From Sphyrna mokarran (taxonomy: Eukaryota): 64,000 nucleotides of DNA. The DNA is taken from contig JAGIQG010000016.1 of NCBI GenBank assembly GCA_024679065.1, forward strand, positions 11,408,001-11,472,000, written 5' to 3'. The first letter of the stretch is position 1, and each line of letters begins with the position of its first letter. The notes under the pieces were generated by a model, which had not been told where the DNA came from, did not search any database, and saw nothing but the letters and a program-made list of their open reading frames with translations. Shown here in pieces: positions 175 through 51,947 of this stretch. The position numbers were made by a program, and so were the translations under genes.

Positions 175-210
175 ACATACGCAAATTGAAAGAAATACTG
201 AAAGATGCTG
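175..210 (+). CDS. 36-nt phase-1 micro-exon (x)IRKLKEILKDA
   Basis: ttatactgcag|ACATACGC...GATGCTG|gtgaga; open in phase 1; clear paralog of exons at 29712 and 51812. Confidence 0.8.
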
Positions 211-631
211 GTGAGAGCAATCATCAAGGGATATGGTTCTGCTTTCAAATGTACATTTAATTCAGACACTATGTAAGATAATTAGCAACAAGACACAAAT
301 TGCTTACCCATTTTATGGAAAAAAGTAAGTGTTGACCATATCCATCAGCAATTTTAATTTCTTATAGAAACAATGTTACATCTTCACATATAGTCAAGTA
401 CGATGGAATATGATGGCGTCCAAAAAGAACAACATTTATTTGTTCAACACTAAAGGCACATGAGAAATAATCATGCGTGTGTGCAATACAAATTGATCCC
501 ATATAATGATATGTGCCAGCATGTTTCGCTTAAGCAGTGACTATAGATTATTTGACATAAAATAGTATACCGGTGTCAATTCAGATTTCCAACTGAAACT
601 TGTACTAAACGCTGGATCATCCGTTAGAAGT

Positions 632-1092
632 CATGATGTAGAGATGCCGACGTTGGACTGGGGTGAACTCAGTAAAGTTTTACAACACCAATTTTAAATC
701 CAACCAAGTTATTTGATAGTAAATTCGCAAGCTTTCGACTTTATAGCCTTCGTCAGGCAAATGCAGTGTTCTGGTCTGCAATAGCACTCATATCCACACA
801 GACAGTTACAGATTGCTGATTAGAATGCGAGTCCTTACATCTAAGTGTTAAAGTGGCTAACAATGTGTGTGAAGGGAATCCTGAGCATTGGTCTCTAACA
901 CTTGAATAGCAGGTTAGATGTAAGGATTCGCATTCTAATCAGCAATCTGTAACTGTCTGTGTGGATATGGGTGCTATTGCAGACCAGGACACTGCATTTG
1001 CCTGACGAAGGCTATAAAGTCAAAAGCTCGCGAATTTACTATCAAATAAATTGGTTGGATTTAAAAATGGTGTTGTAAAACTTTACTGAGTT
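632..1092. mobile_element. Penelope-like element terminal fragments forming an inverted repeat (arms 666-844 and 914-1092)
   Basis: Two 179-bp near-perfect reverse-complement arms around a 69-bp loop; each arm has the CTGACGA...GAAA-type motif recalled from shark Penelope pseudo-LTRs. Confidence 0.75.
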
Positions 1093-1448
1093 AATCGGTT
1101 AGAAACAGACAATCTGAAAAATTTATTCTTAACGTCAAACAACAAAAACTGGAAATATTAAAATGTTGCAGATAAGTAATTAATTTATAGATTAATTTCA
1201 AGCTAAAATCTGTGACAAGGCGAAACACGTTGGAAAAATATATCTGAATTGACAACGAAACATCAGCTTGCATGTGTGATTTCTTCAGCACTCACATGGA
1301 TCAATCCAGGGAAAGAACAGGAATTCGTATTCATTATTGCTGCACATCATTTTCTTTTAACAGGAAATAATGAAGTAAAAAACTAATGCGATGTGATTGC
1401 AGTTAAATGAGAAATTTTAAGGCTGATCACGAAGAGATATTTTGCAAG

Positions 1449-1473
1449 ACAATCAAAATAGGTATCTAAATAG
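1449..1473 (+). CDS. candidate 25-nt micro-exon (phase 1 to 2) DNQNRYLN
   Basis: ttttgcaag|ACAATC...AATAG|gtaacg; frame is restored by the 29-nt candidate at 2539; xNQ start resembles exon 51921. Confidence 0.35.
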
Positions 1474-1726
1474 GTAACGCACACTTTTTTTGTTTAATAG
1501 ATTTATTATCAGAATTTTGGCATGCATATTAGCAACGCATGTGCTTAGAATAAAAGTACAAATAGAATAAAAACACCCTGGTAGAACTAGAGTTCGGTTT
1601 CGGAACTTAGAATTCTCCTATCTACGAATATTTAGAATTAAGGAAAGGTACTCCGAGTTTGCATTTCCTGTAAGCGCCCCTCTCCCCAACCAAAACTCAG
1701 TTCTTCCTTCTGGACGCCGAGACCAA

Positions 1727-1757
1727 ACACACACACACACACACGCACACACACACA
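1727..1757. repeat. (CA)n microsatellite
   Basis: Directly visible. Confidence 0.95.
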
Positions 1758-2538
1758 AAACACGAAAGACTAGATGCTATATTATCACTCTGCCATGTTG
1801 AACGACATTTGGAGGAAATACTTGCCTGGCAATGGCACAACAGGTCCTATAACTGGTGGTGATCGTGACGGTGGGGGATTATTGATAATTGAAATGAGGA
1901 AGTGAAAATGTCAGAAATTAGAGTTGTGCAGTGTACATTAAGTAAACAAACAAAGGAAAACCATGATCTAATTCACGCAAGTAGGCATGGTCTACCAAAA
2001 CGAACAATCATCCATCTACCAGACTGACCAACAAGCAGTAATTTTGATCTGATATTCTGTACTCATATTAAGAAAAATAAAACTCCATAGTGCTACTAAC
2101 GTGGTGTTACTTTGGATAAATTTTGATCAGTTCTATGAACTCACCCGTTAACACCAATAAGGCATTCACGGCCACGAACTGAATTAGATTGTGATCAATT
2201 AAATCATTCATGTTTATGGCACTGTATCTGCCCCACTCGAAATACCCACTGGAATATAATGAGAGAGGGGATGAAGCAATCGAAAGTTCTTGGATGAGTG
2301 AAGAGTTGTAAATGACAAGTCTGCAGTATCTCGATGAACTACTGAACGCTATGCACCAATATTGTGAAAGAAGCAGACAGTCAATTTGCACTCCAGAAAG
2401 GACAAGCAGCGTGCGATACAAAACATTCTACGACCAAGGGATCACAATAATCTTATGCGAGCCTATGATATTCAAACTTAAATAAGCATGGGCAAATGCA
2501 AAGCTCAATGGAATATCTAACACCACAACTATTCCTAG

Positions 2539-2567
2539 TTGCTGTAAGCGCGAGACTGAAAATCTAC
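2539..2567 (+). CDS. candidate 29-nt micro-exon (phase 2 to 1) SCCKRETENL
   Basis: attcctag|TTGCTG...ATCTAC|gtaagt, strong donor; 25+29=54=27+27. Confidence 0.4.
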
Positions 2568-4775
2568 GTAAGTGTTTAGGCTGAGTCATTTACGATTTGC
2601 TTAACGGCAAACTTAGTCTGACTGAGTGATCCATCTTCGCTCTTCCAATGATTCAATTAATTAAAAATGTCATATTTTAACGAACAAGATTCAGTCTGCT
2701 TGGTGCCCAAAAAAAGTTTAATTTAATGGTATGGGCGCTAATATTATTCCAATAATAGTACCTTATTTAGCATCCAAATTTGTTAAACATGCGTCTAAAA
2801 TGGTCCATTCAGCCAAAGATCCGCCATACACACAACAATGTGGAAATTTGGGAAATATCTCAAGTAGTTTGACAAGAACAGAGCCTGTCGTTAATGATTA
2901 CGGCCATTCGTTTGTAATTTGAAAGAAACAATGAACAAAACTAATGTCAAAGAATGTTTGTTGTCCAATAACTTGCTCACAGATGTCAGCACCACTCGAA
3001 TGCTAACATTGCTCGAGTGCAATGGTTCAGACAAGGAATGAATGAAGAAATCCAACGGAAAACTCATTGCTGTTAAGATTTATAACTATAGATCGATTGA
3101 GCGATCGTTGCCTTACAGATTCCTAGCATAAGTGCAGTCAGCAATAAACGGGTAGAGAGGGTGAGGGGCGTTTGTGTGAGACGCGGTGTGGAACTTCTGT
3201 TTGTTAGCGCGCCAAATATATTGAACTAGAAAAAAAAAGGTCGTTGGAGGTTAGAAAAAAAAAATCAGTTGTAAGATCAGAGGATAAACTACAATTTCCA
3301 AAGAATTATATTCACACAGAATATAGCGTGCATCATAAGACCATTCGTCCAATCGACTGTGCACAGTTTCTCCGGAATACAGAATTAAGAACAGATTCTC
3401 ACCGCCGGATCCCCAAAACCTTGCAATTGCGCCTTGATGAATTTTGACCATCACATGGACTATATAAGGAATCCGTACCACCCAGAAGGAACTATTCGCA
3501 CCGAAGCCCGAATTCAAACAGAGGTCATCGCAGCTTTAAAGCACAGGCATAAAACGTTGTGATGAGTCCTGCTATCTTAAGCTGTTTTACTGATGGGCTT
3601 CCGACCGTCATTATGTCAGAAGTGAGGATATTCGATTATTAATGTCCAACCTTTCAACACTTTTGAAAACGACTGGAATACTGAGGGGGACTATATATTA
3701 AGGCAGACAGTTAGTAGGTATCAGGAACAAAAAACTATGGCACACAATTGGCGTTTGTGGCACCAGTATCTGGCAATGACAGTCATCCGGAAAGAAAAAA
3801 AATCTAAACATCGCACTTGACATTCAAACAAAAATATTTATTTATTCCTCATCTCTGTTTTTTTTTAAATTATTTTTGATCAGATCATCAGTTGGGCAAG
3901 CATGTTGATGTGCTCACAATCGGCCAAACATGAGAATAGTTGCAGCAAATAATTCAATACGAGTGGCGACAAACCCCATCCATAAGATGGCATAAGCAAT
4001 TATGGCATTTGGAATTTGTAGTTTACCGTGTGTTCTTACAAATGATTTATCTGACATCCAATCTGCCTGAAAGACGACAGATTTAAATTAAAACGAGGAT
4101 GATGTCAGCCCATTTGATCGATACAATTCTGCAAGTCTTCTTGGTCACATTACCGGAAATCAGTGTCATCTACAAGACGCGTTACAGGATCACATCTACA
4201 TGTATCTGGGAACATATATATCCTCCTTAATTTCGCTGTCCCATTATAACATTATAACAGTAATAATAGTCGTTTGTGAAGGAAATGGTCAAGGGCAAAG
4301 TATTTCATTTGAAGTTTTGATTGGCTGAAACATCGAAAGAATTTGTGATTCTTCGCCGTACAAAGAATACTTTTACTGCAAGATACACGCAAAAAGGTTA
4401 AAGTTTTGACAGAGTTGCGGGACAGAACCATGTTATTATTATTATTACTAGCAGGCAACTTCGGACTTGAAAAGTAAGGAAGAAATAGAGGTTTAGCAAA
4501 TGAACGAGATGGGGCTTAATTGCTTTATCTTAATTATGGTTTGATGAAACGATTAAATTTTAAAAGAACAAATGAAGCGTTTTTATGATGAGCTTTGAAA
4601 TTTTTTTTACATACTTTGAAATTGTCACATGCACAAAGCCATAATAAAAACATACATCATGCAAATGACTGTGCTCGTTTCAACGAGCACATAATTAATA
4701 AGTCTCCACCTTGCGTCACTATTCTAAATCAATTGTGTTAATTGGTATTAAGTATACTAACAATATTTTTTTCAG

Positions 4776-4802
4776 AGGAAAAACTGCGTGCATGCCATGC
4801 CG
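4776..4802 (+). CDS. 27-nt phase-1 micro-exon (x)EKLRACHA
   Basis: atttttttcag|AGGAAA...TGCCG|gtaagt; Cys at the same position as in exon 33973. Confidence 0.8.
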
Positions 4803-5009
4803 GTAAGTTGTTCTTCACAGAACATTATCATCAATCGTGCGAACGCAATGATATAGCCATTGGCGAATATTTGCTGTCGTACATGCATTTACACTGAATA
4901 ATTTATGTCATGTTACCAAGTTTGGAAAAAAAATAATGCGTTCATCTCAAAACTTACCTTTGCTGAAATTCATGTCGCTTTTCTTGACAGCCTTGGGTTA
5001 TATAAATAG

Positions 5010-7790
5010 GTGAATGGACCGCACGTGTTGTATGTCGAAGCGGAATCTCATGTGGTACTTTGCCTGCAGGATCCAGGGTGAGAGTCGTGTTTTCCCAGCT
5101 TGATGAATATTAGAGTGGCTGTGAAAAGATACAACTTTTGTGGTTCACGTTGGGAAAACAAGATAGGAACAAATACGATTGTGAAAAAAAACGTGTTTTG
5201 GGATTAACAGGAACTGAGAACTCAATTATTAAGGGCACTTTCATGAGTTGTGATGTTTGTATTATTCCCTGACTCACGTGTAATTTGGCAAAGATGCGAG
5301 AAAATATAAGTGGGTGAAATGTGATTAGTTGGTGGTGCTAGGATTAGGAGCGTTATGTAATGCTGGGACCATCTCCCCTGAACCGATCTGTGACCCGTGC
5401 TCCAGGAAAAAAAAAACTATAAATAAGGTGTATACCAGGATTTTAAATGACCAGATGGTGCAGATAAGAGTTAAAAATACAAGATATGTAATTGTTTTGA
5501 AACAAACCAGCAGTTTTGCATGTGGAGTGCCGGGATGTCTACTGTGTGGTGATTATGAACATAGAGAAACGGAAAAGGAACAGAGGAGAAGCTCCTAAAG
5601 TTGCCGGAACTAATAAGAAGACATTTTATTGAGAAAGTTTTAGGAACCTCGCAAAAGAGTAAACCAAAAGAAGGGCAAAATGAACAGCGGGGTTCATAAT
5701 GCAGAAATGTGTGTGATGTTTAGAGTGCGTGCAGTTAATTACATAATGTAAAATAACTTTTTTATCGCAGATTGATGTTTTGAGAACTGATGTGTTCATC
5801 ATAGACACATGTTTGCAAGACGACCAGATCTGGTAGCTAGTTATGTAAGGATTCACGTCATGTTGAAAAGGCAGACTGTTGATCAGACGGGTTGATGTTG
5901 CCTTGTTAGGAACGACCATATTTAAATCGATCGTAAGAAACAACTTGAATGTTGAAGGTGTAGGATCTGTGTGGGCCGATTTGAGGAAAAACAGCGTTAA
6001 AAGCCTGTAAAGGAGTTCTGTAGAGACATCTGAGAAGGAGAAGGGATATGGGGTAGAAGATTGCCCAGCAGATAAAAAAAAATCGTATAAAAATGCAACG
6101 TGAGATTGTTCATAGATGATTTAAATATGTAGGCGGCTTGGAAAAAAAATGGTAGTGGATGGAAAGAAATTACACAGTGGAATGCTGACGACATGGATTT
6201 TCGGAGCCTTCTCTGGTTGAACTGACAAGGGAGCAAATGATTCTTAATTTGTTGAAGTATAATGAGTTAGACATTACTTGGGAACATAAATGAAAGGGAT
6301 CCTTAGGAGATCTGGATAGAAACATGATATAATTTACCCTTAAATCGTGAGAAGGGTGAAGCTAACATTAGATATGACAGCATTTCAGTTGTGGTTTAAA
6401 TCACTGGATTGAGGCACGTCCAAGAGGTAATTAATCCATACAACATCATTATTTCAGAGGAAAGATAGAAATAAACGGGAAATTAGAAAACTTAACTATG
6501 ACTTTGGTTGTAAGCATTTTTTTAAAGTCCATCATTAAAAAAAAATGAAATTGTGGAATATATGTAAATTGACGTTAAAAATGGCGAAGTCAGCATGGAT
6601 TCATCAAAGGGAGGCCCTACATGACATGCCGTTGAGAATAGTTTGAATAAATAATGAACACGTTAGACAACAAAAACAATAATTGTCATCTTTTTCGATT
6701 TTCAGAAGTGCATTGACAAGTTGTCACACAGGAGACAGCTTGAAAGGTTAAAAAAAAACACATGATGTTAGAGGCAACGGACTGCATAAATAATAATAAA
6801 AAAAACGGTTGACTGGTCTAAGATAGAGAGTTGGGATGAAATGATCTTTTTCAATATAGCAGCCGGTGTCCAGTTGAGGTCTGCAGTTTTTAGTACTGGG
6901 ATTACATTCTCTTCACTTCATAATCAACTATGTACTTAATGGCACTGAAGGCCTTGGGGCAAGATTTGCAATGGTACATTGTTTGTAGGTAGACCGGCTG
7001 GATGCAAAATTCCTTCGACCATTTAGGGCAGTAGAAATAAAGTTATTTATGGAAAACAACCAATGAAATTATGAGCTATACACTTTGGTAGGAAGAGTAT
7101 AATAGTTTTTTTTTTTAATCAAGTGTACAAAAATTGAAAACATAAAGAGATTTGGGAGTTCAAATTCCAGATTCTCCTAAGGTTAGTTTGAATAATGAGG
7201 TGGTGCTAACGAACACAGATGCATTGAAATAATTCATTTCCAGAGGACGATAGCTCAAGAGCAGGAATGTACTACTGGAACTTTCAAAAGCTTTTATCAG
7301 ACCACTGTTGGAATGTTTAGAATAATTTAGGGCTACATGTCTGAGAAACGATGTTCTGGCCTTGGAGATTGTGTAGAAGAAGGTAACAATAACGGTCCCA
7401 ACAACGGAAAGGTTGATATATGACGAGCGTTTGAAGGATTCGGATATTTATTCAATGGACTTTGGAAGGTTGAGGGCTGATATAATTGCAACTTACTAAA
7501 TCTGAATGGCAGGATAGAGTGGAAGTAGGGAAAAAATGTACTACTGGGAAAGAGTAGGCTACTTGGGCACAGAAGCAGATTGATCAGGCGGCTCTTTAGA
7601 ACCGAAATGATGAGGAATTTCTTCAGCAACAGGGTACTCAATGTATGAAGTTCACTTCCACAGCAGGCTGTGGAGGCAGGGCCTATCAGTTAATTTAAGA
7701 CACAGACGGATAACTTCTTGGTTGGTAAGGGAACAGAAGTTATGGGAAAATAAAAAGAGAATGGGATTCCATTGTAGTGCATATTCGCTG
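5010..7790 (+). mobile_element. Old, near full-length degenerate CR1 LINE (ORF1 esterase, endonuclease, RT, 3' end)
   Basis: VVHVGTNDIG-like remnant ~5140; DFQKAFDKVPH-like remnant ~6700; RNFFSxRV-like 3' remnant ~7610; many stops and frameshifts. Confidence 0.7.
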
Positions 7791-8210
7791 GACAGAAGTT
7801 GCTAATTTTATCCTGGCATTTCGTTTCTTTGCGCATTGTTCTATGGATGCAGTCAAATGGTGAATGACTAGGGCTTTCTGGGTGTAAACATTTTTCCTCA
7901 CTTGGAACCTCTGCAAAGAGATAGTTTCCATGATCTCCACATTAATATTATCAACAGTTATTGGTAAACGTTACTCGCTGATTCAGAATAGAGGCAGAGA
8001 CATGATGAACGTGTCCTCGGGGAGGAAGACGGAACCTCCCAAAATTGGCGTATACGTTTGAATAAGTTAACATCTCGCAGTGCTTGATCCACTAGAAGAA
8101 TGGGGATTGGAACATATAGAACAAAGGTCCTTGTGATGTTCTTACGCACTTCAAAATAAATGAGTTTTATAATTTGCATTGTTTTATTTGTTCCCATTTG
8201 TCTCAATTAA

Positions 8211-8237
8211 ACCTGAGCTACTACATGAAAAATGTTG
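8211..8237 (+). pseudogene. probable dead 27-nt micro-exon (acceptor AG>AA) DLSYYMKNV
   Basis: Long pyrimidine tract ending caattaa (cf. caattag at 11004 and 30277), then exactly 27 nt open in phase 1, then gtaagc. Confidence 0.45.
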
Positions 8238-9449
8238 GTAAGCAGTGAGTTGCAATGCAAGAAACATGCGACAATGGTGGTGTACATAACTGCGAAATGT
8301 ACTGTTTCATTATTCTCTGTCTGTTGACTTCCCGCTCCCCAATTTCACGAGCAAGAAGTCATGGCCAAATTTTATTTCGAATATGTTGGGACAGGCACTA
8401 AAACATTAAGAGAAATGTGGTTTCAATCCGGCAAATAATTGAAAAGGCATTTCCCTTGACATTCAATTTCATTAATACCCACAAATCCGTATTATGAATG
8501 GTATTATGACGACTGAGCAGTAACTCAACACAATAGGGAACCTCATTGCATTCGCCGTAACAACAGGCAAGTAGTGGGTCATGGTTTGCTAATTAAGTAA
8601 TTAAACTGCTCAGTGAGGTCGACAACATTTGAGTTCAAATTGTGAAGAAGAACTATGTCATTGACGAGATAAGTACATGTCCAAATGATGACGCAGCTTG
8701 CAACATAATTGCAGGGAAGATAGCTGAGTTGATGAAAACTTTGCATTCATATATTTCTGACTCCGCGACAGACAGTGCCTTATTTTTGCAATGCACAATG
8801 GAACACATTCAACACGCTCATTCGAAGGCCACTTACAACATGTCTAAGTGTAGCATCTGAAAATACAATGACACAATCAACAATAATTTAACACCAGAGC
8901 AATAAATAATAACGAAATAACATTTTGAATAGTGATTGTCAATGGAACAAATGCTGGGAATTCCCAATGTAACAGTACTCCTTCAACAATGACGTTCTCC
9001 ACCAGCTACTTGGTTTAAATAAGCATAATTCATTTTTTTTAAAGTTTTGACTCAGGCACCGAGAGGCGTGTTCATGCAAATAGACGATATAACATATACA
9101 TATCCCAATATATTCGGGCTCTATTACAATTCGTGTGATTCCCCTTTCTATAATTCGCATTTACTAATTTAATAAGCATCTGTGAGGCAGAAGATGAATT
9201 TAATCGTCGGTTGCCCTTTTCCATCTGCCGCAACAAGGCTTTCCGTGTACCACTGCACTCTTGCTACGTTGACAATCAAAATCGTCAGTGAAAATAGTTG
9301 TGTGTATTATACATGCCTAGCTTATCACTTTACGATTTGTGGTCAAAAAGTATTTCAACGTGATGAATACTTCAATTCTAATCACGTCAGTAACTTCCCG
9401 GGAAGTACATTTGCCATGAATTCAACGAATTATGCATTCGTATCATGAC

Positions 9450-10050
9450 AAACGTGTTCTATCCACATGTTGCTATTCTTAAAATTTAAGAAATAAGATG
9501 TATTGGAAATTATTTCCGTCTATCGCTTCTGGTCAATGATTATCATCCATTGGAGAAGGTGCCATATTTCTTAAATGACAGTCGTGAGAGGGCATTCGTT
9601 TTCTCTTTCCAGTCAGGTCATCATGTGCCTGATGACACACCCTTTCTTTGCGATGAGCTCCCAAAGGTCCTGCGACAATATCGGGAAAACTATTGAATGT
9701 GTTGATTTCCAGATTACTCTGAAAGATACGTTTTACTGTCGTCCTGTGGCAATGCTGCAGGAGTCGGACAATGAGAAAATACTGATGATGCATCCGTGAG
9801 TAATAGTTTTTTTTTGAATACAGATTCGAATTCCATGATCATTTCGTGCAGTTGTTCTCAGCTATCTGAACACAGATGTTCAGATGCGCTAAATGAAGTG
9901 TGCCTTGTGTATCTGGTCAGAGCTATGGAGGTACATGCCGTATTTCTCACTGCAGAATACCATTTGCCGTTTTAGCCTTCCATGTGAAATGCTGTTCCAA
10001 TTTTGCTGGTGCTGATTATTTCTTGGCATGATGAAAATCCCGTGAAGGAT
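9450..10050 (-). mobile_element. Degenerate non-LTR retrotransposon fragment, possibly RTE-like
   Basis: Weak recalled similarity to reverse-strand RTE RT region; no intact ORF. Confidence 0.3.
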
Positions 10051-10727
10051 TCAAAAATAGTGAAATGTCAAGTGGCTTATTTCAAGAGTCCGATAGCGGA
10101 TTTTTTTTTTGTTTGTTTGTTTTGCCTTCGAAACAACGCACTTATTAACGTACACTGACATCTTAGAATTCCCAACTGAGCTCGTATGTCATGCAGATAC
10201 CTATACGTTTGCTTTGACTGTGTCATCAAAGTTGTGCTCACATTATCTTCAAAATAAATCATTGGTGCTGAGAGATGTTACCGAATAAAACTGATTGCTG
10301 CAGAGGTCACCCACAATGTGAAATATCGTTTCCGTAAGAACAGCAAAACGAACAAAAGCACATTGATGTAACGCAGCATAAATTTATTAACACTTGTACT
10401 CTGCCAGTTTGTGAACAAAAATGCGACTTCGTTGCAAATAACGTTCATGAATATATCGTGATATCGGACCTTGTCGTGTTTTCAAATTTTCCCATGTCTG
10501 GTTGTGCATCATAACGAGCTCCGGTTTCCTTCAGCAGCACGAAAATAAGTAGAATTGGTGTAACAGCGATGCATGCTTTTTCCTTGCTGTGCAAATAAGC
10601 ATACGTTAGATGGAATAGACGTGATCAATGGGCAATGTTTCGAGGAAAACGGCGGGTCTTGGTGAAATGCTCCTTCAGCGAGTTGATGCCAAATCGATGA
10701 ACCCAACGCACTCTTTCTGACCTGTAG

Positions 10728-10775
10728 GATTCCATCGTTATGATATTTATATGTTGTGTGGTTGGAAGAAAACCA
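10728..10775 (+). CDS. candidate 48-nt symmetric exon GFHRYDIYMLCGWKKT
   Basis: ctctttctgacctgtag|GATTCC...AAACCA|gtaagt; open in phase 1; atypical length. Confidence 0.4.
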
Positions 10776-11004
10776 GTAAGTTCAGTCTATTTCGTTCGCA
10801 GCCATGTCTTCTTAATTGTGTTAGGCTTTTCAATTAGTGCTGAACATTTTCACCTCATTTCCATACTCAGATGGTTACTGAATAAATTCGAAATCAAAAT
10901 ACCATGATGCTGACATCCATGGAAAGAATGGTTTGTGGTGAACCAGAAAATGTCTTCTGTTTTTATTTCATTTATTAACAAAAACAATATGAACTTTCAA
11001 TTAG

Positions 11005-11031
11005 ATCAACGCACGAAAGACTTCAAAACAG
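11005..11031 (+). CDS. 27-nt phase-1 micro-exon (x)QRTKDFKT
   Basis: actttcaattag|ATCAAC...AAACAG|gtaaaa. Confidence 0.7.
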
Positions 11032-30304: not shown

Positions 30305-30349
30305 GTGAGTAATGCATACATTCCGCGGGTACAAGATAGTAGATCTAGC

Positions 30350-42024: not shown

Positions 42025-42051
42025 CAAACAAGTTGCTAGCAAAAGAAAAAG
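42025..42051 (+). CDS. 27-nt phase-1 micro-exon ANKLLAKEK
   Basis: ctctttataattcgcag|CAAACA...AAAAAG|gtacac. Confidence 0.75.
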
Positions 42052-42260
42052 GTACACATATAACTGGCTTTATGTAGGTCTGTTCAAAATGCTAGTCAGC
42101 ATTTTTGAGGGAAGGGGCTTTGTGATCACTTTTGAAATATCCTGCTATAAATGTGATTGTGACGATCATACAAATGCTGAATTGTTTCCTCAATTGTCAT
42201 TCATGCGTCTCACTTCATGTTATTTTACATGTTCGAGTTCTCATTATTATTATTGCATAG

Positions 42261-42287
42261 GATCTGACGGTCCCTATCTCATTCGCA
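42261..42287 (+). pseudogene. probable dead 27-nt exon GSDGPYLIR (donor GT>AT)
   Basis: tattgcatag|GATCTG...TTCGCA|ataagc; exactly 27 nt, open in phase 1. Confidence 0.45.
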
Positions 42288-42679
42288 ATAAGCTTTATAT
42301 CCATTTTTATGGATGTAGACATGCGCCTTAGCTACCTTCTTGAACCTTTGTACTCTGGGCGGTTTTTCAGGTAGTGTTACCCAGAATTTAGGCCGCATTA
42401 ACTTTATATCCAATATGCTCATAGTTCCGAGATACAATCAAACAAAGTTGATTTTGAAAATGCATATTCATATATTAGTCACTTAAACTTTGGCTAAGGA
42501 TGCCCCGAGTGTGTTGCTTTTAAATTTGGGTCCATTTTTTTATGAACGGAACTGCGGGGTGGTGGGGGGGTGGATGGTGGATAAGACTGAAAGGTTTTTT
42601 ATGAACGAGTGGAGAATATATGGGGCACATCTGTTACAAATTTAAGGTTTGACGTTGTCCCTCACAATGTAAGGCAACG

Positions 42680-44005
42680 TGGCTTTGTAAAGGGGAGGTC
42701 GTGCCTTAAGAATCGAGTAGGATTTGTTGAGGAGGTGACAAAAACTGGTGATGAAGGACGAGCCGTCTCGTCGTCCAAATAGATGTCAGTAAGTCGTTTG
42801 ACAAAATCCCTCATGGTAGGTTGGTGAAAACAGTTAAGGTTCTTGAGATACAAGGGCAGGTGGCTAGATGGATTGAGAACTGGCTTTGCAACACGAGACA
42901 GAAGGTGGAAGAGACTTATTCTAGCTGGAGATCTGTGACTAGTCGTGTGCCGCAGGGCTCCGTACTGGGACCTTTGTTACATGTGATACATAGAAATCAT
43001 TTGGAAGAGGGAGTAACTGGTGTGATCAGCAAGTTTGCAGATGACACGAAGATGGCTAAACTTGCTGATAGTAATGAACAGTGTCAGACAATACAGTAGG
43101 ATATAGAGAGGATGGTAAATTGGGCAGTGAAATGGCGGATGGAATTTAATCCAGATAAATGTGAAGTGACGCATTTTGGAAGAAATGATGTAGCGGGGAT
43201 TTATGGAATAAATAGTAGGACTATTAAGAGTATGGAAACACAGCGGGACCCAGGTATGCAAGTTCACAAGTCCTTGAAGGTGGCGGTACAAATGGAGAAG
43301 GTGGGGAAGAAGGCATATGGCATGCTTGCCTTTATAGGAAGGGGTATAGGTTATAAAAAGCTGGCATCTAATGTTGCAGTTGTATAGAACGTTGGCTAGA
43401 CTGCACGTGGAGAACTGCGTCCAGTTCTGATCGGCGCACTACCGGAAGAACGTGGAGACCTTGGAGAGAGTTCAGTAGAGGTTTACCACGATGCTACCTG
43501 GTATAGGAAAGATTTGGAAAATTAGGGCTGTTCTCCCTGGAAAGACGGAGAATGGAGGCAGACCTAATAGGGGTGTACATGACGATGAAAGAAATAGATA
43601 GAAATAACAGTGGGAAGCTTTTTCCCAGGTTGGATAGAAAAAATCACAAGGGGCCACAGACTAAGGGTTAGAGGGGCGAGGTATAATACAGATGCTCGAC
43701 GGAGTTTTTTCACACAGAGGGTTGTGAGGGTTTGGAATGCACTGCGAATTACGGTGGTGGAAGCAGGCACGCTAGAGTTGTTTAAGCCTTACCTAGATAA
43801 TCACATGAACAGGCTAAGATGGAGGGATACAAAATAATGTTCTAGTTAAGGATCAGGAGCCTCAGGGCGTTCGTGGGAATCATTGGATTCCTATGGGGCG
43901 TCCAATATATTTTATGCCTCAGCTGTCTGTTACGTTTTGAGCTTCTGGGAATCTTCCGCGAATGTCTGTATAGGTTGTGTACGTTTATTTATGTCTGTTT
44001 TGTAC
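42680..44005 (+). mobile_element. CR1 LINE RT region and 3' end with start of the extended 3'UTR
   Basis: ORFs VTSRVPQGSVLGPLL...KFADDTK, WRMEFNPDKC, TRGHRLRV; 43830-44005 is homologous to the reverse complement of 26390-26545. Confidence 0.9.
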
Positions 44006-46211
44006 ATTTTGAGATTCATTTATATTACGAGCCGAGTTGTCTTACCGTCATACATGGAATTTCGCAATATTTAACTTTCAAATCAAATCGACTGAAGACT
44101 AGTTACATTGTCTTTCAATGCCAAAAAACATGCATAATTTGCCAGAAATTTGCAAAAAGATGCAAAAAAAAATCACAAACAGTACACTAGCTTTCTTCTA
44201 TGGGAATTTATTTCACGTGCATTTCTTGAGACAGAAGAATTTTATATACATATATGTATCAGTACGGCAAAAGAAGCTCGTCATTCGTGGAAGAAAATGC
44301 ATTTAATATTGTTTAAAATCGGATAAATTTCATTATAATTTCAATAGGAGATACCATTTCAATATCACGTTCTGTACAATGCGTTGCCTTTAATTGCTTT
44401 ATATTCTACGTTTTTTAAGGTTTCAAGATTTGGAGAGGAAATTTACATATGTTTTCCTTATTATTACTTGGGACTTTCTGCATGTATGTCAACAATATTT
44501 TGCATCATTGCGACATTTTTGCAGACTTGGTATGGTTTATAAAGGGACTTTACATTTTCTATCATAGAAAATATACAAATATTTTAAAAACATGCCTTTC
44601 GTTGACTGCAAGTATTCTTTTTCACATACTTGTTAAAATGCATTAATTCATTTCTATTTACAATACACATTCATAGAAAGTAATACTAACAGCACAGTAT
44701 TCGAGGCACATTCTATGCATTCACATCGTTAGAAATTTGGCGGTATAGTTTTTTTTATGTTATGTATGCTGTGTTTGATGTGCAAATAGAATCAAGAGCA
44801 CGCTGTAATGAACGGTTGAGTTTTAGTTTAAATTTTTGGGTGCGTTCGCCCCCGAAATCCTGGATTGCACTGACATGGAGAATAATTTTTGAATTGGCAA
44901 TGATTAGCATAATTTTTTCATATACGAATTGAATTGATACCCTGATCAAATTCATTGTATCTCTTTTTTTTTAGTTTTGTGTTCAAATGAGAGCATTTAA
45001 ACATCACCACCCTTCTGTGCAATCTTGCTGATAAAAAAATAACATCCCCTCTGTAATTGATGACCGGGCCCAGCATGTCTGCTATTGGTTAGCTATTCTC
45101 CAATACTAGTTTAGTATCAACACTCTGTATTCTTCTTGGCATTTTCGCGTGATCTAATCACGACCGTAAAGTTAGAACTTATCCGTTTTTTTTTCGAGCT
45201 GCCACTGTCGTTTCTTTTTTTTGGTAAAATTATTTGTTCTTTGTTATGCAATTAATATAGTTACTATGATTTGACAGCTGTTCCTCTACATCTCCAAGTA
45301 GCCCAACAAAGAGAATATAAAATGTCCAAGAGCAGGTTCCTGGGCCTGCACGTGAACAATTTCTGACTCGAATAAACATTTAAGATTTAAAGGAGTTAAG
45401 ATTAATCTGTTAATTAATGTTAATTAATTAATAATTAATTAATAGGTTTTCTAGCCATCCAAAAGACCTGTTACTTGGAGGGAAACGAAATGTTGTTGTA
45501 GTGCCCTTCATTAACAAAAGGACAGCAACGTTGTTAAATGTTTATTAAATATCTCCAGATTGTCAGCGGGAAATTGAAGAAAAAATATGTGTGCAATTCG
45601 CAGAGCGGTTTACAAATAACAAGAAAGCATTTTATTAGGCGATTTCAACGATCCCAACATTAACTGGAATGACGAACATCTTAAGGACTTAGATGGAGTA
45701 GGTTTCTTAAATATATGCAGGAAAATGCATTAGACCAATATTTAGATGATGCAACAAACATCGGAGTTATGCTGGATGTAATTCTTGTGAATGAAGCTGG
45801 GAAGGTGGTTAATTAATTGGTGGCGTAGGAGGGCGGTGGATGGGGGGTAGACATTTTGATGGTAGGGACTTCAACATGTTTCAATTCGAATTTGCTATCG
45901 ACAAATAAATTGTGACGTTGCAGTAATAAAGAGATTTGGTTTTAGGGAAAGTACATTTTAAGGAAATTAGACGGATCTGGCCATTTAAAAACGAACGAAT
46001 TAATTTTGCTGAAATCAAAGGAGAATAGTGGACGGGTTGGGAGGGGGAGGAGTGGCGGAGTTTTACAACGATGAAATATGGAAGATACTGGCCCAACATA
46101 TTCTCTTGGCATAATAGGACGTTGCAACAAATATAGAGAACCATTGAAAACCAGAGACGTTCAGGGTACAATGGTGTAAAAACAGAGGCTGTTCAGAAGT
46201 ATTGGGGATTT

Positions 46212-46505
46212 AACTCTGCCAATCAGCCTAAGAGCACATCTTTGGGATGTGGGGGGAAACTGGAACACCCGGAGAATACCCACGCAAGCACGTGGAGAAT
46301 GCGCAAACTCACACAGACACAGGCACAAATCCATGTATCTGCACAGCATAGCGATAGTCACTGGGCTGTCGTGTTGCCCTCAACTGGTCTCGTTCAAGCG
46401 TACACTAACGACGTGACGCACTAGGCTAATCTCGAAGAATCCAGGAACAGCCCTCCCACGACCCATAGCGTTTATGCTCCTTGTTAGACAAGGCGGGCTG
46501 AATTA
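46212..46505 (-). mobile_element. Fragment of the CR1 extended 3'UTR/V-core element nested in an older CR1
   Basis: Homologous to 26075-26360 and to the reverse complement of 35530-35810. Confidence 0.85.
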
Positions 46506-47194
46506 AAAGAATGCATTGAACGAATTTTTCACATCTGTCTTCACTCGTGGGAATGGAGAGGGGTTGTGAGACTTTAGAGAATACTATCATTGCGAGTGAC
46601 AAGTCACTGGAGGTATTGGTGGGCTTAAAAGTGGACACATCTCCAGGTCAGGATTAATTGTGTCCCAGGCTGATGTGTGTGGAAAGTAAATAAACTGCAG
46701 GGGCTCTGAAACATTTTTTTAATCTCTCTGATGAATAGGCTGATGCGAGAGGAAAGGAGGAACAGCTGATGTAGTCCCAAAATTTAGACATTTTGTACAG
46801 AAGAACACAGGGAAATACAGGCCAGTGAGCCTCACGTCTGTGTTGGGAAACCACTGAAGAAGACTCTAAAGGGGAGTGTGTACCTCCATTCGGAATGAAA
46901 GAGTTGGCAAGGGATTGTCAGCGTGGTTTTGCCAGAGGAAGATCATTGCTAACATTTTTTGAACTTGCAACCGACTATGTGAATGAGGCTAGTGTGGCTG
47001 ATGTAGTTTACAGGGATTCTGTCAAATCCTTTGACAAAGTGTCACATGGAACACTTGCTTTTTTTTTACGGAAAAGAAGATGTACTTATTTGTCACAAGA
47101 AAGGCTTACATTAACAATGCATTTAGTTAATGTGAAACTAAGCTAGTCGACACACTTAGGCGCCTGCTCTGTTCAGTGCGTCACACAGCATGAC

Positions 47195-47362
47195 TTCTAC
47201 TTTCACGACGTGGAAGCAAACTGGGGCACCCGAAGGAAACCCATGCAGAGACGGGGAAAATGTGCAAACTCCACACAGATGGCAATTGAAGCCGGGAATT
47301 GAACCAGAGTCCCTGGAGCTGTGTAGCAACAGTGTCAACCACTGCATCACTGTGCCATCCAC
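47195..47362 (-). mobile_element. V-SINE fragment (tRNA head and V-domain) nested in CR1
   Basis: gaaacccatgcagagacggggaaaatgtgcaaactccacacag...gccgggaattgaacc...ccctggagctgtg. Confidence 0.8.
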
Positions 47363-48038
47363 GACAGCTAACGCAAAGGGGGTACAGGGCGATCTGATAA
47401 ATCGGATTCATAACTGGCTATGTTGCGGGAAGACAAAGGTTGGTGGCAGATTGCTGCTTTATTAACTAGTGAAAAGTGGCGTGCCTCGGGGATCAATAAT
47501 TGGCTCCTTTGGTTCGTCATTTATATAATCATTGTCTGAGGCGTTAGGTCAGTCAGTGTGATGATATCACAAAGTTTGGCCGGTTGATTAGCAATAAGTT
47601 TGAATGTCTTGTGTTACTGGGAAACATAGACGAAGTGATCAAATGGGCAAATAAGCGGCAGATGGAAACTGACCAAGTAAGATGTGAACTGGTGTACTTT
47701 GGACAGAGTGTTGTGACAAGGCAGCATACTACGATAGATCTGATACTAGGAAGCTCTGGAACATTTCATGGGGCATGTCATGGAGATCTGAAATTGGAAA
47801 GGCATTTTAAAATGATAGTGTAAAATGCATGTGTCATTCACAAATTCATCAATTGGATTATCGGTCACAAACACAGAGACGTCATGTTAGAGCGCCACAG
47901 AGCTTTGATGAGGCCGTAGCTGGAGAACTGTGTACAGTTCTGGTCGCCACACTAAAGGAAGGACTTGAAATCTGTCGATGAGGTGCAGAGAAATTTCACA
48001 GAGTTGCCTGGAATAGGATTTTTACGTCATCATGACAA

Positions 48039-48758
48039 GTGACAAGTGGTGTGCCTCAGGGGTCTGTTTTGGGGCCCCTGCTGTTTGTAATTTTTATAAA
48101 TGATCTGGATGAGGGTATTGAGGGATGGATCAGTAAATTTGCAGATGACACTAAAGTCGGTGGAGTGGTAGATAGTGAAGAGGGGTGTTATAGTTTACAG
48201 AGTGACTTGGACAAGTTGCAGAGCTGGGCCGAGAGGTGGCAAATGGAGTTTAATGTGGAAAAGTGTGAGGTAATGCACTTTGGCAGGAACAATAAATGTG
48301 TAGAGTATAGGGCTAATGGTAGGGCTCTTAATAGTGTTGAGGAACAGAAGGATCTTGGTGTATGTGTCAATAGATCCCTGAAAGTAGGCAGTCAAGTGGA
48401 TAAAGTTGTTAAGAAGGCATATGGAGTCTTAGCTTTTATTGGTAGGGGGATTGAATTTAGGAGCCGCAGCATCATGTTGCAACTGTACAAAACTCTAGTG
48501 CGGCCGCACTTGGAGTATTGTGTGCAGTTCTGGTCCCCACATTATAAGAAAGATGTGGAGGCATTGGAGAGGGTACAGAGGAGGTTTACCAGGATGTTGC
48601 CTGGTATGGAGGGCAGGTCCTATGAAGAGAGGTTGAAGGATTTGAGGTTGTTTTCGTTAGAAAGGAGGCGGCTAAGAGGGGATCTTATTGAAGCATATAA
48701 GATGATTAGAGGTTTAGATAAGGTGGACAGTGATAGCCTTTTTCCTAGGATGGAGAAA
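48039..48758 (+). mobile_element. Young CR1 RT fragment with uninterrupted frame, truncated at both ends
   Basis: ORF 48039-48812 SGVPQGSVLGPLLF...FADDTK...RPHLEYCVQFWSP; homology stops after FPRMEK. Confidence 0.95.
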
Positions 48759-50726
48759 TTGTCCGTCCATATTCCAATTTTCAAAAAAAAAATTGAATGT
48801 GACAAGAAATGAGCAGTTGCAGAGAAAAAGTGCTTGGGGAAAAGAATTTGAAAACTATAACAAATGGTTATTTTCCAAATGTGCAGGACCATTATAGCAG
48901 ATTTCCCTATGGTTGTGGATAAGAGTTTTTCCTGACTTGCATTTTACGTTGTCATACTATGATGCGCAGAGCATCACTCCGAGTTTTTTTAGAAACTTAC
49001 AATAATGGAAAATGGCAATACTATTAATCAATTTGCAACTGAATTGCAAAAGCGAACATTGATTAGCAGTAATTTAGCAAAGCGGGAAGTGGCAGAGATA
49101 TTCGTAAGTCATTGCAGATATTGGGAAAACTCTAAAGAACCTGAGTAAATGCCTGGAATCTGATACCTGCGTGCTTTTGTAGTCTAGATATGCCAGGAGA
49201 TGTTAATATTTCTGAAATAAAATACTTGTAATAATATAGCGTGTCTTGGGGAATTGAATCACAGTTCAAGAAGGTGATGTCAAACTTGAAAAAAAAACAA
49301 GTAGTTGTGCTTCCCCTCGTATGTTGTGCACGGTGATGGGAAAAAAAAGTACTTCAGAAAGAATGTACACCCGTGTAGGAGAGTGCCTAGGATGTACAGC
49401 CGTATAAATACAGGGGTGAGGAACAAACGTTTTAAAAGAACCATTGTAGAAGTTGTAATTGCATTAGAGAAAAAAAAACACAGAGAGATGAAAGGTTGTT
49501 GGAATAGTCAATCTCCGGAATGTCACAGCTCTGCGTACCACGAACTGAATAGTGTGAATTAAAAAAAAAAAATGACAAAACTTGCACAGATGATTTGATC
49601 AAACATATGTATTCACATCAAGGATTGTTGGAAAACGGAATGGACAGATTTGGTGCTGTTGTGTGATATACATCCAAACAACTGAAGCTGCAACTGGATT
49701 TCCATTTCAAAATAAATAATGCGCCAGGTTCTGTTTGAAAGGCACAGACAGAAAATCAGAAATCCAAGAGTGGGTCGATGAGCAGAATGTCACATTTTGT
49801 GTCATCGTAATAATTTTATTTACATCAATCTTTGATTCAGACTTTATCACCACTATTGACAAGAACCCTCTTAGTTCAACGTTTCATTTCACTATACGAA
49901 AGAAATGTCCTCAAAACTGTCTTTCCACCATCTTCAGAGAGGAAATGTATTCCCTTGATAATCATCCATGTGCACAGAAATAAGGGTTCGTATCCATGGA
50001 ATCCCAAACAATATAGCATTCTATCTGCGGTTGCAAGCAACACCTTTCAGAGTATCGTTTAATTTGCTTTCCAATGCATTTCGTATAAGAATATTTACAA
50101 CTGAACATAAAAGAGAAATGCATTGCACCAACTATTTCCCTTCCCTTTGCGTATAGCTAACATCAATGGCGTCCGTATCTGAATAATGTTAAATATCGAA
50201 TTAAGGTTGTCCACAAATTAGTGATCCAAGTTATTGTACAACCGTGACGGAAGTCGTGAGATGCTGGTGCTTCAACCTTTCCAGATAACATCAAATCTGG
50301 TTGCTACTTTTGTTCACGTCAGGCTGTTGTATTGCTCACTTTTCGAAATCCTGAAATGCCACTTGAAGAATAGTCCTGTTATGCCTTTTGATTGACAATA
50401 CAAAATGTCAATAAAGTACGCATTTACATTATTTCCGTGCTGAAATCATTATATCATGCTATTTTACTGCAGTTAATATCAATGTTTCATTTGTACGTAT
50501 TCCAGTGCAACTCAAGCTAATTGCAAGAAATGTCTAGTGCTGATGCATGTTGTTAAATAAACTTCGAATTATTTCTTGAATAATCAATTGGTGACCTATT
50601 CCGATGAGGTGGTACGTCGTGCATTATGTTTTTCAAGTTGCAGTACTTCATTACTATAGCTCGTTGAACATAATATCTTCATTGACAATACTTTTATTAA
50701 AAAAGTCAAATAAGCTATGTTTTTTC

Positions 50727-51110
50727 TTAGAAAGGAGGCGGCTAAGAGGGGACCTTATCGAAACATTTAAGATGATTAGAGGTTTAGATAGGGTGGACAG
50801 TGATAGCCTTTTTCCTAGGATGGAGAAAGCTAGCACGAGGGGACACAGCTTTAAATTAAGGGGTGATAGTTATAGGACGGATATCAGAGGTAGGTTCTTT
50901 ACCCAAAGGGTGGTTCGGGAGTGGAATGCCCTGCCTGCAGCAGTTGTAGATGCGCCATGTTTGGTGGCGTTTAAGAGGTTAGTTGATAAGTATATGGAAG
51001 AGAAGGGAATGGTTTAGTTTGGAGGGGCATTGCTTTTTATATTGGTCGGCGCAACATCGAAGGCCGAAGGGCCTGTTCTGTGCTGCAATGTTCTATGTTC
51101 TATGTTCTAT
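50727..51110 (+). mobile_element. Young 5'-truncated CR1 3' end with (TTCTATG)n tail
   Basis: LERRRLRGDL...TRGHSFKL...FFTQRVV; ggccgaagggcctgttctgtgctg...gttctatgttctatg. Confidence 0.95.
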
Positions 51111-51811
51111 CTATTCAGCCATGTGATAACATTGTCTGACTTCTCATCATCTATATTTACTTTTCCTGCCTTGCACTCTGACTCAGATCGAGCCAGTCTG
51201 TGCCCTGTTCACTTCGTTGAAAACAATGTTCCATGGTTTGATCACGTTAAGGTGATTGGTTTTAACCTGGAACTTCTGAAATAGCACCTATGTGCAAAAC
51301 TTCCCTGCCAAAAATTAGACAAATTATATTGAAAAAATCTGAATAATCATCCAGACGTAACTAGCACGATGCCAGCAATGCAATTGTTTGTTTCATCAGA
51401 ATCATTTTTTTTTGTTTTCAAAACGATGGCACTGTTGCAGATATTGATTCATGAACGTATGCACCTATTTCCCCAGCTATGGTTGTTAGTTACGTTGATG
51501 TGCATCTTCCCCTTCCATGCCTTAAAAGTAAATAAGGTAACAATATAATAAATTGAGTGATCGTATTTTCCATCGATTGGTGCTTCTTTCGTAGCTCTGA
51601 TTTCGTTTTTTTTAAAAAAAACGAACTGCTAAATTCACCATATATTTGCGAACAACACAGCTTAGTCTGTCTCACAAGTTGGACATTGTGCAATGTCAGT
51701 GGATATTTGAACTTACCTAAAATGTCGCTCATGATTTACTGCAAATGTGCTATCCAGAACAGTAGAACGTACATGACATTTTTTTTTTAATAATTGATCT
51801 CTACTTTACAG

Positions 51812-51847
51812 AAATTCGTAAATTAAAGGAAGCATTGGAGAACAAAT
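51812..51847 (+). CDS. 36-nt phase-1 micro-exon EIRKLKEALENK
   Basis: ctctactttacag|AAATTC...ACAAAT|gtacgg; 10 of 12 residues identical to 29712, with mostly synonymous changes. Confidence 0.85.
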
Positions 51848-51920
51848 GTACGGACAATCTTAAGGCTGGTCTAACATATTACTGTTCAAAATTGCAAAAT
51901 TGAACGAATACCACATCTAG

Positions 51921-51947
51921 CAAATCAGAAGAATGCAGGAACATTAG
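51921..51947 (+). CDS. 27-nt phase-1 micro-exon SNQKNAGTL
   Basis: ccacatctag|CAAATC...CATTAG|gtaaaa; 73-nt upstream intron. Confidence 0.65.
   Translation, partial: QIRRMQEH

Follow-up and report, generated by a model that had tools for sequence, protein, structure and literature searches.

Several described gene families place coiled-coil heptads in small exons or join a coiled coil to a B30.2 domain. In chicken BG genes, exons of 21 nt (some of 18 or 24 nt) follow an IgV exon and a membrane exon, and 13-36 of them occur per gene in one haplotype; the excerpted accounts describe these genes without a B30.2 domain. The 'zipper protein', which is a BG tail in soluble form and a regulator of actin-myosin, provides a precedent (excerpted from PMC4046983). 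Schistosome micro-exon genes (MEGs) are described in excerpts of PMC10526429 as coding for secreted proteins that do not exceed 189 residues and occur in several spliced isoforms. Finally, enterophilin-1 is given as a partner of sorting nexin 1 in PMC13749957.

The window analysed here is a stretch of 64,000 nt from a contig of the shark Sphyrna mokarran. It lies wholly inside a predicted gene, gene B, near its 5' end. The reading favoured here, tentatively and with somewhat less than an even chance, is that gene B is one gene of ~480 kb, whose product is a soluble, intracellular coiled-coil rod with C-terminal B30.2 heads.

The micro-exon array

A sequence-only reading of the window had proposed a set of symmetric micro-exons. 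All 20 segments are present (14 of 27 nt and six of 36 nt; coordinates reconstructed). Each is preceded by AG and followed by GT, apart from the GC donor after 37561, and all are open in phase 1. Joining the 13 segments that lie between 29712 and 51947 gives a stop-free peptide of 129 residues, identical to the one reported earlier. The acceptors had also been called pyrimidine-rich; the AG holds everywhere, while the richness is uneven, at 6-12 pyrimidines per 15 nt. When scored with a model of the family, 17 of the 20 are family-like and three (at 1844, 30278 and 51921) are doubtful (Table 1). An Rfam search of the window gave 0 matches.

Table 1. Micro-exons, candidates and landmark exons of gene B (window positions, or contig positions for the last two rows)
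Feature	Position	Strand	Remarks
Window	1..64000	+	whole window inside predicted gene B, close to the 5' end of the gene
36-nt micro-exon	175..210	+	confident; family score 20.2
27-nt segment	1844..1870	+	doubtful; family score 1.4; 6/15 pyrimidines
27-nt micro-exon	4776..4802	+	confident; family score 21.7
27-nt candidate beyond the 20	11005..11031	+	borderline; family score 9.4
36-nt micro-exon, weak donor	18220..18255	+	family score 17.6
27-nt candidate beyond the 20	21443..21469	+	borderline; family score 9.4
27-nt micro-exon	21592..21618	+	confident; family score 25.8
27-nt micro-exon, second type (hydrophobic residues 2 and 5)	22216..22242	+	confident
27-nt micro-exon	28609..28635	+	probable; family score 10.2
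36-nt micro-exon	29712..29747	+	confident; 83% identity to exon at 51812
27-nt segment, linker-like atypical residues	30278..30304	+	acceptor 5.0, donor 9.8 (strong); family score 3.3
27-nt micro-exon	31074..31100	+	confident; family score 18.3
36-nt micro-exon	32704..32739	+	confident; family score 22.9
27-nt micro-exon	33973..33999	+	confident; family score 22.1
27-nt micro-exon	34690..34716	+	probable; family score 10.1
27-nt micro-exon	36373..36399	+	confident; family score 18.0
36-nt micro-exon, GC donor	37526..37561	+	confident; family score 21.4
27-nt micro-exon	38651..38677	+	probable; family score 11.5
27-nt micro-exon, second type	39048..39074	+	confident
27-nt micro-exon	42025..42051	+	confident; family score 19.7
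36-nt micro-exon	51812..51847	+	confident; family score 17.0
27-nt segment, poor acceptor, 73-nt intron in front	51921..51947	+	doubtful; family score 8.1
First array exon	G000:C668:11399613-11399639		8.4 kb upstream of window; in-frame Met-Gly, candidate start only
Terminal B30.2/SPRY coding exon	G000:C668:11879152-11879672		+471 kb; intact, 521 nt

A loose count of AG..GT intervals, suggested earlier as a check, does not separate the strands (36 intervals of 27 nt on the + strand, 48 on the - strand). Weighted by splice site, the window alone holds 14 against 6 at 27 nt and 7 against 5 at 36 nt. A scan of 690 kb for lengths of 6-120 nt used splice sites only and contains no coding term; only 27 nt and 36 nt stand out in it. 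At 27 nt there are 51 hits on the + strand and 18 on the - strand, 45 of the 51 being open in phase 1; at 36 nt the numbers are 50 and 13, with 40 of the 50 open. A model made from the window exons finds 52 (+) versus 0 (-) at a score of at least 16 in 400 kb outside the window. Conversely, a model from the upstream paralog scores 18 (+) versus 1 (-) in the window; it is not fully independent, since the choice of its seed exons made use of an amino-acid term that had originally been derived from the window. Its 18 hits compare with a mean of 1.55 and a maximum of 4 in 40 block-wise dinucleotide shuffles of the window, so the strand and shuffle comparisons proposed earlier favour the array once such a model is used. 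Some candidates were rejected as repeat-derived false positives: an identical 27-mer occurs on both strands near -177555/-175826, at 444449 and in gene F.

With a leave-one-gene-out model, gene B has at least 98 confident 27/36-nt phase-1 exons between -8.4 kb and +466 kb of the window start, with 3 on the opposite strand. Beyond the window lie 81 further ones, between +70 kb and +466 kb; the sequence-only reading had covered about a fifth of those confidently found. The 98 exons amount to at least 3,060 nt of coding sequence, compared with the single 521-nt B30.2 exon. Taken in order, they give 0 stops at 97 junctions. On the favoured reading there is a single spliced mRNA, in which at least 100 phase-1 micro-exons would precede one B30.2 exon.

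The contig carries six genes of this build, gene B and genes A, C, D, E and F, which span close to 1 Mb in the parts read; the arrays of the other five were read in stretches ending short of their 5' starts. The array of the upstream paralog A likewise terminates in a SPRY exon, and the B30.2 reading frames are intact in all six genes. The last 200 kb of gene B is colinear with paralog A, exon by exon, with a score of 195 (100 order shuffles: mean 102, maximum 170). For genes C and E, colinearity with gene B is not above shuffles, and gene F is marginal. In 21 reciprocal-best paralogous exon pairs, mismatches are 0.21/0.135/0.39 at codon positions 1/2/3 and dN/dS is ~0.22, with flanks 0.29 identical. 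At the level of sequence, this shows that the paralogous micro-exons are under purifying selection.

The rod and its B30.2 head

A pair of one 36-nt and one 27-nt exon codes for three heptads. Hydrophobic residues occupy positions 2, 5, 9 and often 12 of the 36-nt exons and position 4 of most 27-nt exons, and the hydrophobic periodicity of the rod peaks at 3.5. Array, phase and heptad pattern thus agree with the earlier proposal, in which symmetric phase-1 micro-exons of a cartilaginous-fish gene encode a coiled coil. Cysteines in the 36-nt exons lie at core positions 5 and 12 in 26 of 28 cases. At a coiled-coil rise of about 0.148 nm per residue, the rod would measure 150 nm or more over at least 1,020 residues, and each chain would carry a C-terminal, ligand-binding B30.2 head. 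Such a rod would have grown through repeated duplication of the three-heptad exon pair. The product would be soluble and non-enzymatic, resembling the cytoplasmic tail of a butyrophilin or BG protein that has lost the Ig and membrane parts and become enormously longer. It would serve as a spacer or tether, keeping paired B30.2 heads far from an N-terminal binding partner. An AlphaFold model of a related skate protein, P0151, is poor (mean pLDDT 45.2), although parts of its two long helices reach 70-85.

Occasional exon skipping would shorten the rod. The many length variants suggested earlier are only indirectly supported: predicted isoforms of related database models differ by single 9-residue blocks, and loss of a lone 9- or 12-residue exon displaces the heptad register. 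An extended version of this idea is unlikely as a whole. It sees giant B30.2 'rulers' of cartilaginous fishes, with rods of 150-250 nm made of at least 100 interchangeable 9-/12-residue modules and length and stiffness set by regulated skipping. Paired skips would keep the heptad register and single skips would make kinks. The product would be either a tether inside the cell, anchored by lipid, or a secreted protein with disulfide links and an immune or structural role. A single gene would in this way determine how far a recognition domain reaches or how such domains are spaced.

With the flanks of the window read, the family is assignable. In a FastTree phylogeny (midpoint root, 76 sequences picked for similarity to the query), the gene B B30.2 domain falls in a separate cartilaginous-fish clade with support 1.0, apart from butyrophilin domains. 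Sharks, rays and chimaeras are all represented in this clade, whose origin therefore probably lies at the base of the cartilaginous fishes. One member sits amid a B30.2 cluster on an MHC contig; the 5.4 kb upstream of it contains one weak 36-nt candidate on the coding strand and similar weak matches on the opposite strand. The best solved-structure match of the gene B domain is BTN3A1 (E 5e-32). In alignments, three of the six phosphoantigen-pocket positions of BTN3A1 are still basic here, while two His and one Arg are not. The AlphaFold model of the domain is poor (mean pLDDT 51.5 with 6 sequences).

The database models of relatives are short or start at the wrong place, and go under the names TRIM39-like, A33-like, butyrophilin-like or nuclear-pore-anchor-like; the ones scanned lack RING and Ig matches. 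The nearest look-alikes of one of them, P0175, in the ESM Atlas are clusters of 55-137 proteins with a long coil and PRY/SPRY. A word-based search for longer proteins with the gene A SPRY exon, an insensitive method, returned 0 at E 1e-10; relatives were found later.

Compartment, gene number and membrane exons

On the favoured intracellular reading, the product would act inside the cell, possibly anchored via an N-terminal myristoyl group. The M-G-x-x-x-S at the candidate start is a single post-hoc motif (of 189 confident exons, 1 has Met-Gly), and the helix that follows is not more amphipathic than the rod.

A secreted version of the rod is a serious possibility, only somewhat less probable than the intracellular one. 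Here a short leader exon would be spliced in phase 1 to the array, and the product would be a disulfide-linked, extracellular, B30.2-headed rod of plasma, mucus, egg or seminal secretion. If the introns of a butyrophilin-like ancestor were all phase 1, loss of the IgV, IgC and membrane exons would give such a protein directly. Disulfide-linked extracellular rods also fit the cysteines, because these sit at core positions of the 36-nt exons. Signal-like hydrophobic N-termini are seen in two related models (skate P0151 and chimaera P0024), and salmon P0136 is a fish example of signal peptide, long coil and B30.2, though its B30.2 lies outside the clade. Against this, five related models (P0175, P0161, P0157, P0302 and P0153) have no hydrophobic stretch at their start; database 5' ends are unreliable here, P0008 beginning with LINE-derived sequence. 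Leader-like candidates in the 65 kb upstream number 7 (+) and 5 (-), which is background (1-9 per strand in seven control stretches), and the best-looking one, at -51802, has a weak donor. Searches for a leader by hydrophobicity, and by short tblastn with the N-termini of relatives, gave nothing above background, and a CpG/GC profile of the upstream 69 kb found no clear promoter island.

Neighbouring confident exons are up to 38 kb apart, so that the array might comprise several genes. In that case the window exons would form a separate, B30.2-less coiled-coil gene like a BG tail, and distal exons would join the B30.2 exon. This is improbable. The stretches at 51.8-70, 183-205 and 428-466 kb contain no confident exon, and paralog colinearity was examined for the distal 200 kb only. 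However, strand, phase, exon types and composition are uniform throughout the array, paralogs C, E and F have arrays of at least 79-110 kb ahead of one B30.2 exon, and related database models are as long as 945 and 1,697 residues. A second B30.2 exon was looked for between -69 kb and +471 kb and none was found.

The sequence-only reading had raised a membrane receptor, and a receptor of butyrophilin/BG type is more improbable still. In it, the array would be the cytoplasmic tail, with ectodomain and membrane exons upstream. Phase-1 small heptad exons followed by B30.2 are the layout of a butyrophilin tail (PMC4046983, PMC5938342, in excerpt), BTN3A1 is the best structural match, and one clade member lies on an MHC-bearing contig. 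But the stop of the upstream gene lies only 60 kb before the first array exon, and this interval yielded no Ig exon, none that spans a membrane and no convincing leader. Across 754 kb including this interval, tblastn with 161 relatives, 16 of which carry an Ig motif, found no Ig exon, and the best Ig profile match had E 1.9. Pfam gave 0 Ig, RING or B-box matches in 95 upstream ORFs of at least 70 aa, with 6 boundary-spanning ORFs left out, and no Ig match among scanned clade members. Membrane-like exons before the array are at background (1 weak candidate on +, 3 on -), a search that a very short or odd exon could escape. A profile from 45 relatives found no RING/B-box exon in the 754 kb (best E 0.12, opposite strand); therefore the product is not expected to be an E3 ligase. 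Because Ig, RING/B-box and membrane exons were not found, gene B does not appear to be a butyrophilin, BG or TRIM gene.

Finally, chance matches or a decayed pseudogene can be dismissed as having almost no probability: loose counts lack a + excess and a few candidates are doubtful or repeat-derived, but the strand excess is specific to length without any coding term, paralogous exons carry a codon-position bias, all six B30.2 frames are intact and exon order is conserved between paralogs.

Comparison with known systems

No paper on such a shark family was found in a literature search covering mostly sources other than subscription journals. The multi-gene family has mostly been missed by annotation, and it is relevant to the shuffling of B30.2 heads and of the tails of butyrophilins, BG and TRIM proteins in early jawed vertebrates.

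The earlier comparison with butyrophilins and BG pointed the right way, as the array leads to a B30.2 domain. In chicken BG genes, as in gene B, a long coiled coil is divided over numerous small exons whose first codon is split; the number of exons differs from gene to gene and heptads cross exon borders (PMC5938342, PMC4046983, in excerpt). Gene B differs in its exons of 27/36 nt, their number (~100 or more) and its terminal B30.2, and in that Ig and membrane exons were not found. Butyrophilins likewise have a B30.2 exon after their small heptad exons, a joining predicted for gene B. They have only a few heptads, whereas gene B has its B30.2 in a separate clade, and no IgV/IgC/membrane part was found.

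TRIM proteins (TRIM39- and A33-like) also combine a coiled coil with a C-terminal B30.2. In gene B a RING/B-box exon was not found, and the rod is far longer and encoded by micro-exons. Guinea-pig enterophilins have a long leucine zipper and B30.2 without a membrane part, but are much shorter than the gene B rod. Their layout is like that of gene B; they are mammalian, and the likeness is one of architecture. Teleost coil + PRY/SPRY models (for example salmon XP_045550229, P0136) share a very long coil and a terminal B30.2. P0136, an uncharacterised prediction, has a clear signal peptide, and its B30.2 groups weakly with BTN/TRIM-type domains.

Schistosome MEGs resemble gene B in having coding sequence mostly in very short exons with long introns between (PMC10526429, in excerpt). 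There is no homology, the gene B product is far longer, and the heptad register limits which exons can be dropped. Gene B offers a vertebrate case in which nearly the whole of a long protein would come from micro-exons, in a three-heptad unit of 36+27 nt.

Micro-exon array and predicted product

The window, at 11408001-11472000 of contig C668 in a genome of 2.77 Gb, contains the 20 segments described in the sequence-only reading. Fourteen of 27 nt and six of 36 nt are present on the plus strand, with AG before and GT after (GC at 37562) and with phase 1 open. Translation of the 13 segments between 29712 and 51947 meets no stop and gives the peptide first proposed. On a scoring model built from the neighbouring paralog, 17 of the 20 score at least 10; those at 1844, 30278 and 51921 fall below. 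The table lists further in-frame candidates with family-like scores of 15-19, and exons of 15 nt rich in Lys are also found at other places in genes A and B.

Reverse-transcriptase-like fragments of a LINE, CR1-like by motif, lie in the introns; no other long ORF of the window is recognisable. A short tandem array is also present, and the first intron seen holds an inverted repeat that resembles a hairpin or a MITE-type element.

The suggested coiled-coil character is borne out by a hydrophobic periodicity peak at 3.5 and by heptad-like core positions in the exons. Among the 36-nt exons (n=76), 80-86% have a hydrophobic residue at each of positions 2, 5 and 9, and 64% at position 12, with Ala and Cys counted. 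Of the 27-nt exons (n=113), 69% have a hydrophobic residue 4, and 59 carry Lys at residue 7. A 36-nt and a 27-nt exon together encode 21 residues, or three heptads, and the two lengths alternate in 49 of 63 cases of neighbouring exons less than 4 kb apart.

None of the 97 in-order exon junctions creates a stop. Stops arise at only 134 of the 4,753 skip junctions that are possible, so the reading frame survives almost any skip; by arithmetic, the heptad register is kept by paired skips only. Among isoforms of relatives, which are database predictions, five pairs from four species are set apart by an internal block that is exactly 9 residues long, and one further pair each by 6 and by 7 residues.

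The minimum product of gene B, the gene that holds the window, is predicted to have about 1,020 rod residues and a 173-residue B30.2 domain. It would be oligomeric, a long rod displaying B30.2 heads at a distance, and would have no catalytic part. Tentatively, such a protein could well be a cytosolic tether or scaffold. The first exon of the array has an ATG in good context and reads M-G-x-x-x-S, the N-myristoylation pattern, as a single post-hoc observation. Five related protein models start without a signal-like stretch, and others have doubtful starts.

Alternately, the product may be a secreted, disulfide-linked rod, which is possible if more doubtful. Among the cysteines of the 36-nt exons, 26 of 28 lie at residues 5 and 12, which are core positions of the coil, and a signal-like start is found in two related models (P0151 from skate and P0024 from chimaera). 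Leader-like exons are at background level, with 7 on the plus strand and 1-9 in controls.

Extent of gene B and its paralogs

The array runs past the window on both sides, with 52 plus-strand and 0 minus-strand exons outside it at a score of at least 16. Gene A is a separate upstream array with a terminal SPRY exon and a stop at about -69.0 kb. No 27- or 36-nt candidate scoring at least 10 lies between this stop and -8.4 kb, which places the window close to the 5' end of the gene B array. The confident exons of gene B number 98 (52 of 27 nt and 46 of 36 nt), spread over 475 kb, against 3 on the opposite strand, and a few exons of 15, 18 and 21 nt are found in the same region. Because only 15 of the 20 window segments pass the threshold behind the 98, the real total could be closer to 130, by estimate.

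A division of this array into several genes is unlikely. No other B30.2 exon was found between the stop of gene A and the next B30.2 exon on the same strand. The median spacing of the exons is 2.2 kb, though gaps reach 38 kb.

The six best matches to the B30.2 exon of gene A are all on C668, at 8.56, 11.34, 11.88, 11.93, 13.72 and 14.32 Mb. Ahead of each, on the same strand as the exon itself, lies an array of like kind, and the B30.2 reading frame is open in all six genes, A-F. Three gene pairs (A and B, D and B, A and D) share an exon order to a degree that exceeds 100 order-shuffles for each pair; it is not above the shuffles for C or E, and is marginal for F. To assess selection, reciprocal-best exon pairs with a nucleotide identity of 70% or higher were compared (21 pairs, 171 codons). 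Mismatches number 36, 23 and 67 at codon positions 1, 2 and 3, with a dN/dS of about 0.22 and a flanking-intron identity of 0.29. Judged from this comparison, the array exons are old duplicates under protein-level selection.

A 21-nt exon starting with Cys is conserved in genes A-D just before the last exon or exons ahead of B30.2. In gene F, a weak Met-Gly candidate stands alone in a 30-kb array gap and could mark a start within the gene or a border between genes.

Features of the array and its surroundings (window-based coordinates, negative upstream, unless a contig is named; array counts are exons on the coding/opposite strand)
Feature	Position	Strand or count	Remark
Gene A array		34/1	parts first fetched
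Gene C array		21/0	parts first fetched
Gene D array		12/0	parts first fetched
Gene E array		15/0	parts first fetched; array at least 110 kb
Gene F array		9/2	parts first fetched; array at least 79 kb
First exon of gene B array	-8387 to -8361
Next same-strand B30.2 exon	+471,152 to +471,672		PF00622, E 4e-13
Cys-initial 21-nt exon	+461660 (L063); -73716 (L009)		also genes C and D
Gene F Met-Gly candidate	C668:14278438		27 nt, score 12.5
In-frame candidates	16758-16772; 46801-46824; 54387-54395		15, 24 and 9 nt
Inverted repeat	666-844 / 914-1092		179 nt, 96% complementary, 69-nt spacer
Tandem array	24725-25062		units 104-119 nt
LINE fragment	26643-26987	-
LINE fragments	42755-43099, 46829-47146, 48036-48812, 50595-51017	+
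Best non-C668 matches to gene A B30.2	C1548:101418296-101418829 (L101); C1548:109189525-109190043

Domains looked for and tests against chance

A likeness to butyrophilin and BG genes and a possible membrane receptor had been suggested. The likeness holds in part, since heptad exons are followed by B30.2, but a membrane receptor is quite improbable, as no Ig exon was found and membrane-like exons are at background level only. A tblastn search with 161 relatives gave neither an Ig nor a RING/B-box exon. In profile searches of 19,974 six-frame ORFs, no exon was found with an Ig profile (17 segments, best E 1.9) or a RING/B-box profile (45 segments, best E 0.12). Pfam on 95 upstream ORFs gave only reverse transcriptase above the cut-off, with no Ig or RING/B-box. 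Four V-set Ig exons occur on C668 at 2.18, 3.34, 4.71 and 5.34 Mb, among 150 of 1,261 candidates scored; the nearest family member is more than 3 Mb from them.

A loose strand count, proposed in the sequence-only reading, gave no plus-strand excess (27 nt, 36 plus and 48 minus). Weighting by splice sites gives a modest excess in the window alone (27 nt, 14 against 6; 36 nt, 7 against 5). In a 690-kb scan of lengths 6-120 nt by splice-site strength, without any coding term and with approximate splice-site tables, only 27 nt (51 plus against 18 minus) and 36 nt (50 against 13) stand out. Phase 1 is open in 45 of these 51 and 40 of these 50 plus-strand matches. The array withstood strand and shuffle controls with the paralog-trained model (18 plus against 1 minus in the window; a maximum of 4 in 40 shuffles), although the trained models are not fully independent, because an amino-acid term, initially learned from 21 segments of the window (19 of the 20, as reconstructed, and 2 extra candidates), entered the choice of their seeds. 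That the array is an artefact is scarcely credible.

Relatives and known systems

Relatives were gathered by an unfiltered HMMER search and two profile searches. The closest single-domain matches are predicted shark, ray and chimaera proteins of 101-1,697 residues with a coil and one SPRY, which databases name TRIM39-, TRIM58-, TRIM69-, A33-, butyrophilin- or nuclear-pore-anchor-like. Residues 48-119 of P0008, a RefSeq model of a catshark relative of gene C, match LINE fragments at many regional sites; this LINE-derived start shows how annotation fails on such genes.

In a midpoint-rooted tree of 76 B30.2 domains, with all taxa picked by similarity to the query and with a random draw of 30 RING-bearing and 15 other sequences, the cartilaginous-fish relatives and genes A-F form one clade (support 1.0) on a long stem. 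This clade stands apart from butyrophilins, TRIMs and a salmon secreted coil-B30.2 protein. MHC class I and a large B30.2 cluster are found on another contig, C1548, as are the two best matches to the gene A B30.2 exon outside C668. One of these, L101, belongs to the clade because it is 67% identical to catshark P0014. Salmon P0136 and its cluster are uncharacterised, unrelated-looking models of 2,000 residues with signal peptide, coiled coil and PRY/SPRY; such teleost models are possibly a parallel invention.

The phosphoantigen pocket of BTN3A1, compared at six positions, is only half conserved here: in alignments, three basic positions are kept, and two His and one Arg are lost. This suggests that the B30.2 ligand probably differs from the BTN3A1 phosphoantigen.

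According to PMC4046983 and PMC5938342, a butyrophilin has a few heptads and a B30.2 at its end, exons of 21 nt encode the coiled-coil tails of chicken BG proteins, and actin-myosin in gut cells is regulated by a BG tail in soluble form. PMC12841164 reports butyrophilins from across the jawed vertebrates and, for three cartilaginous fishes, places them on the MHC chromosome. The component parts are already known. Here they come without Ig or RING, in exons that follow a 27/36-nt unit and number about 100 or more, and with a B30.2 of a separate clade; this combination was not found in a literature search of mostly titles and abstract starts. The array is real and, as predicted from genomic DNA, is a variant of the tail-plus-B30.2 design of butyrophilin, BG and TRIM proteins.
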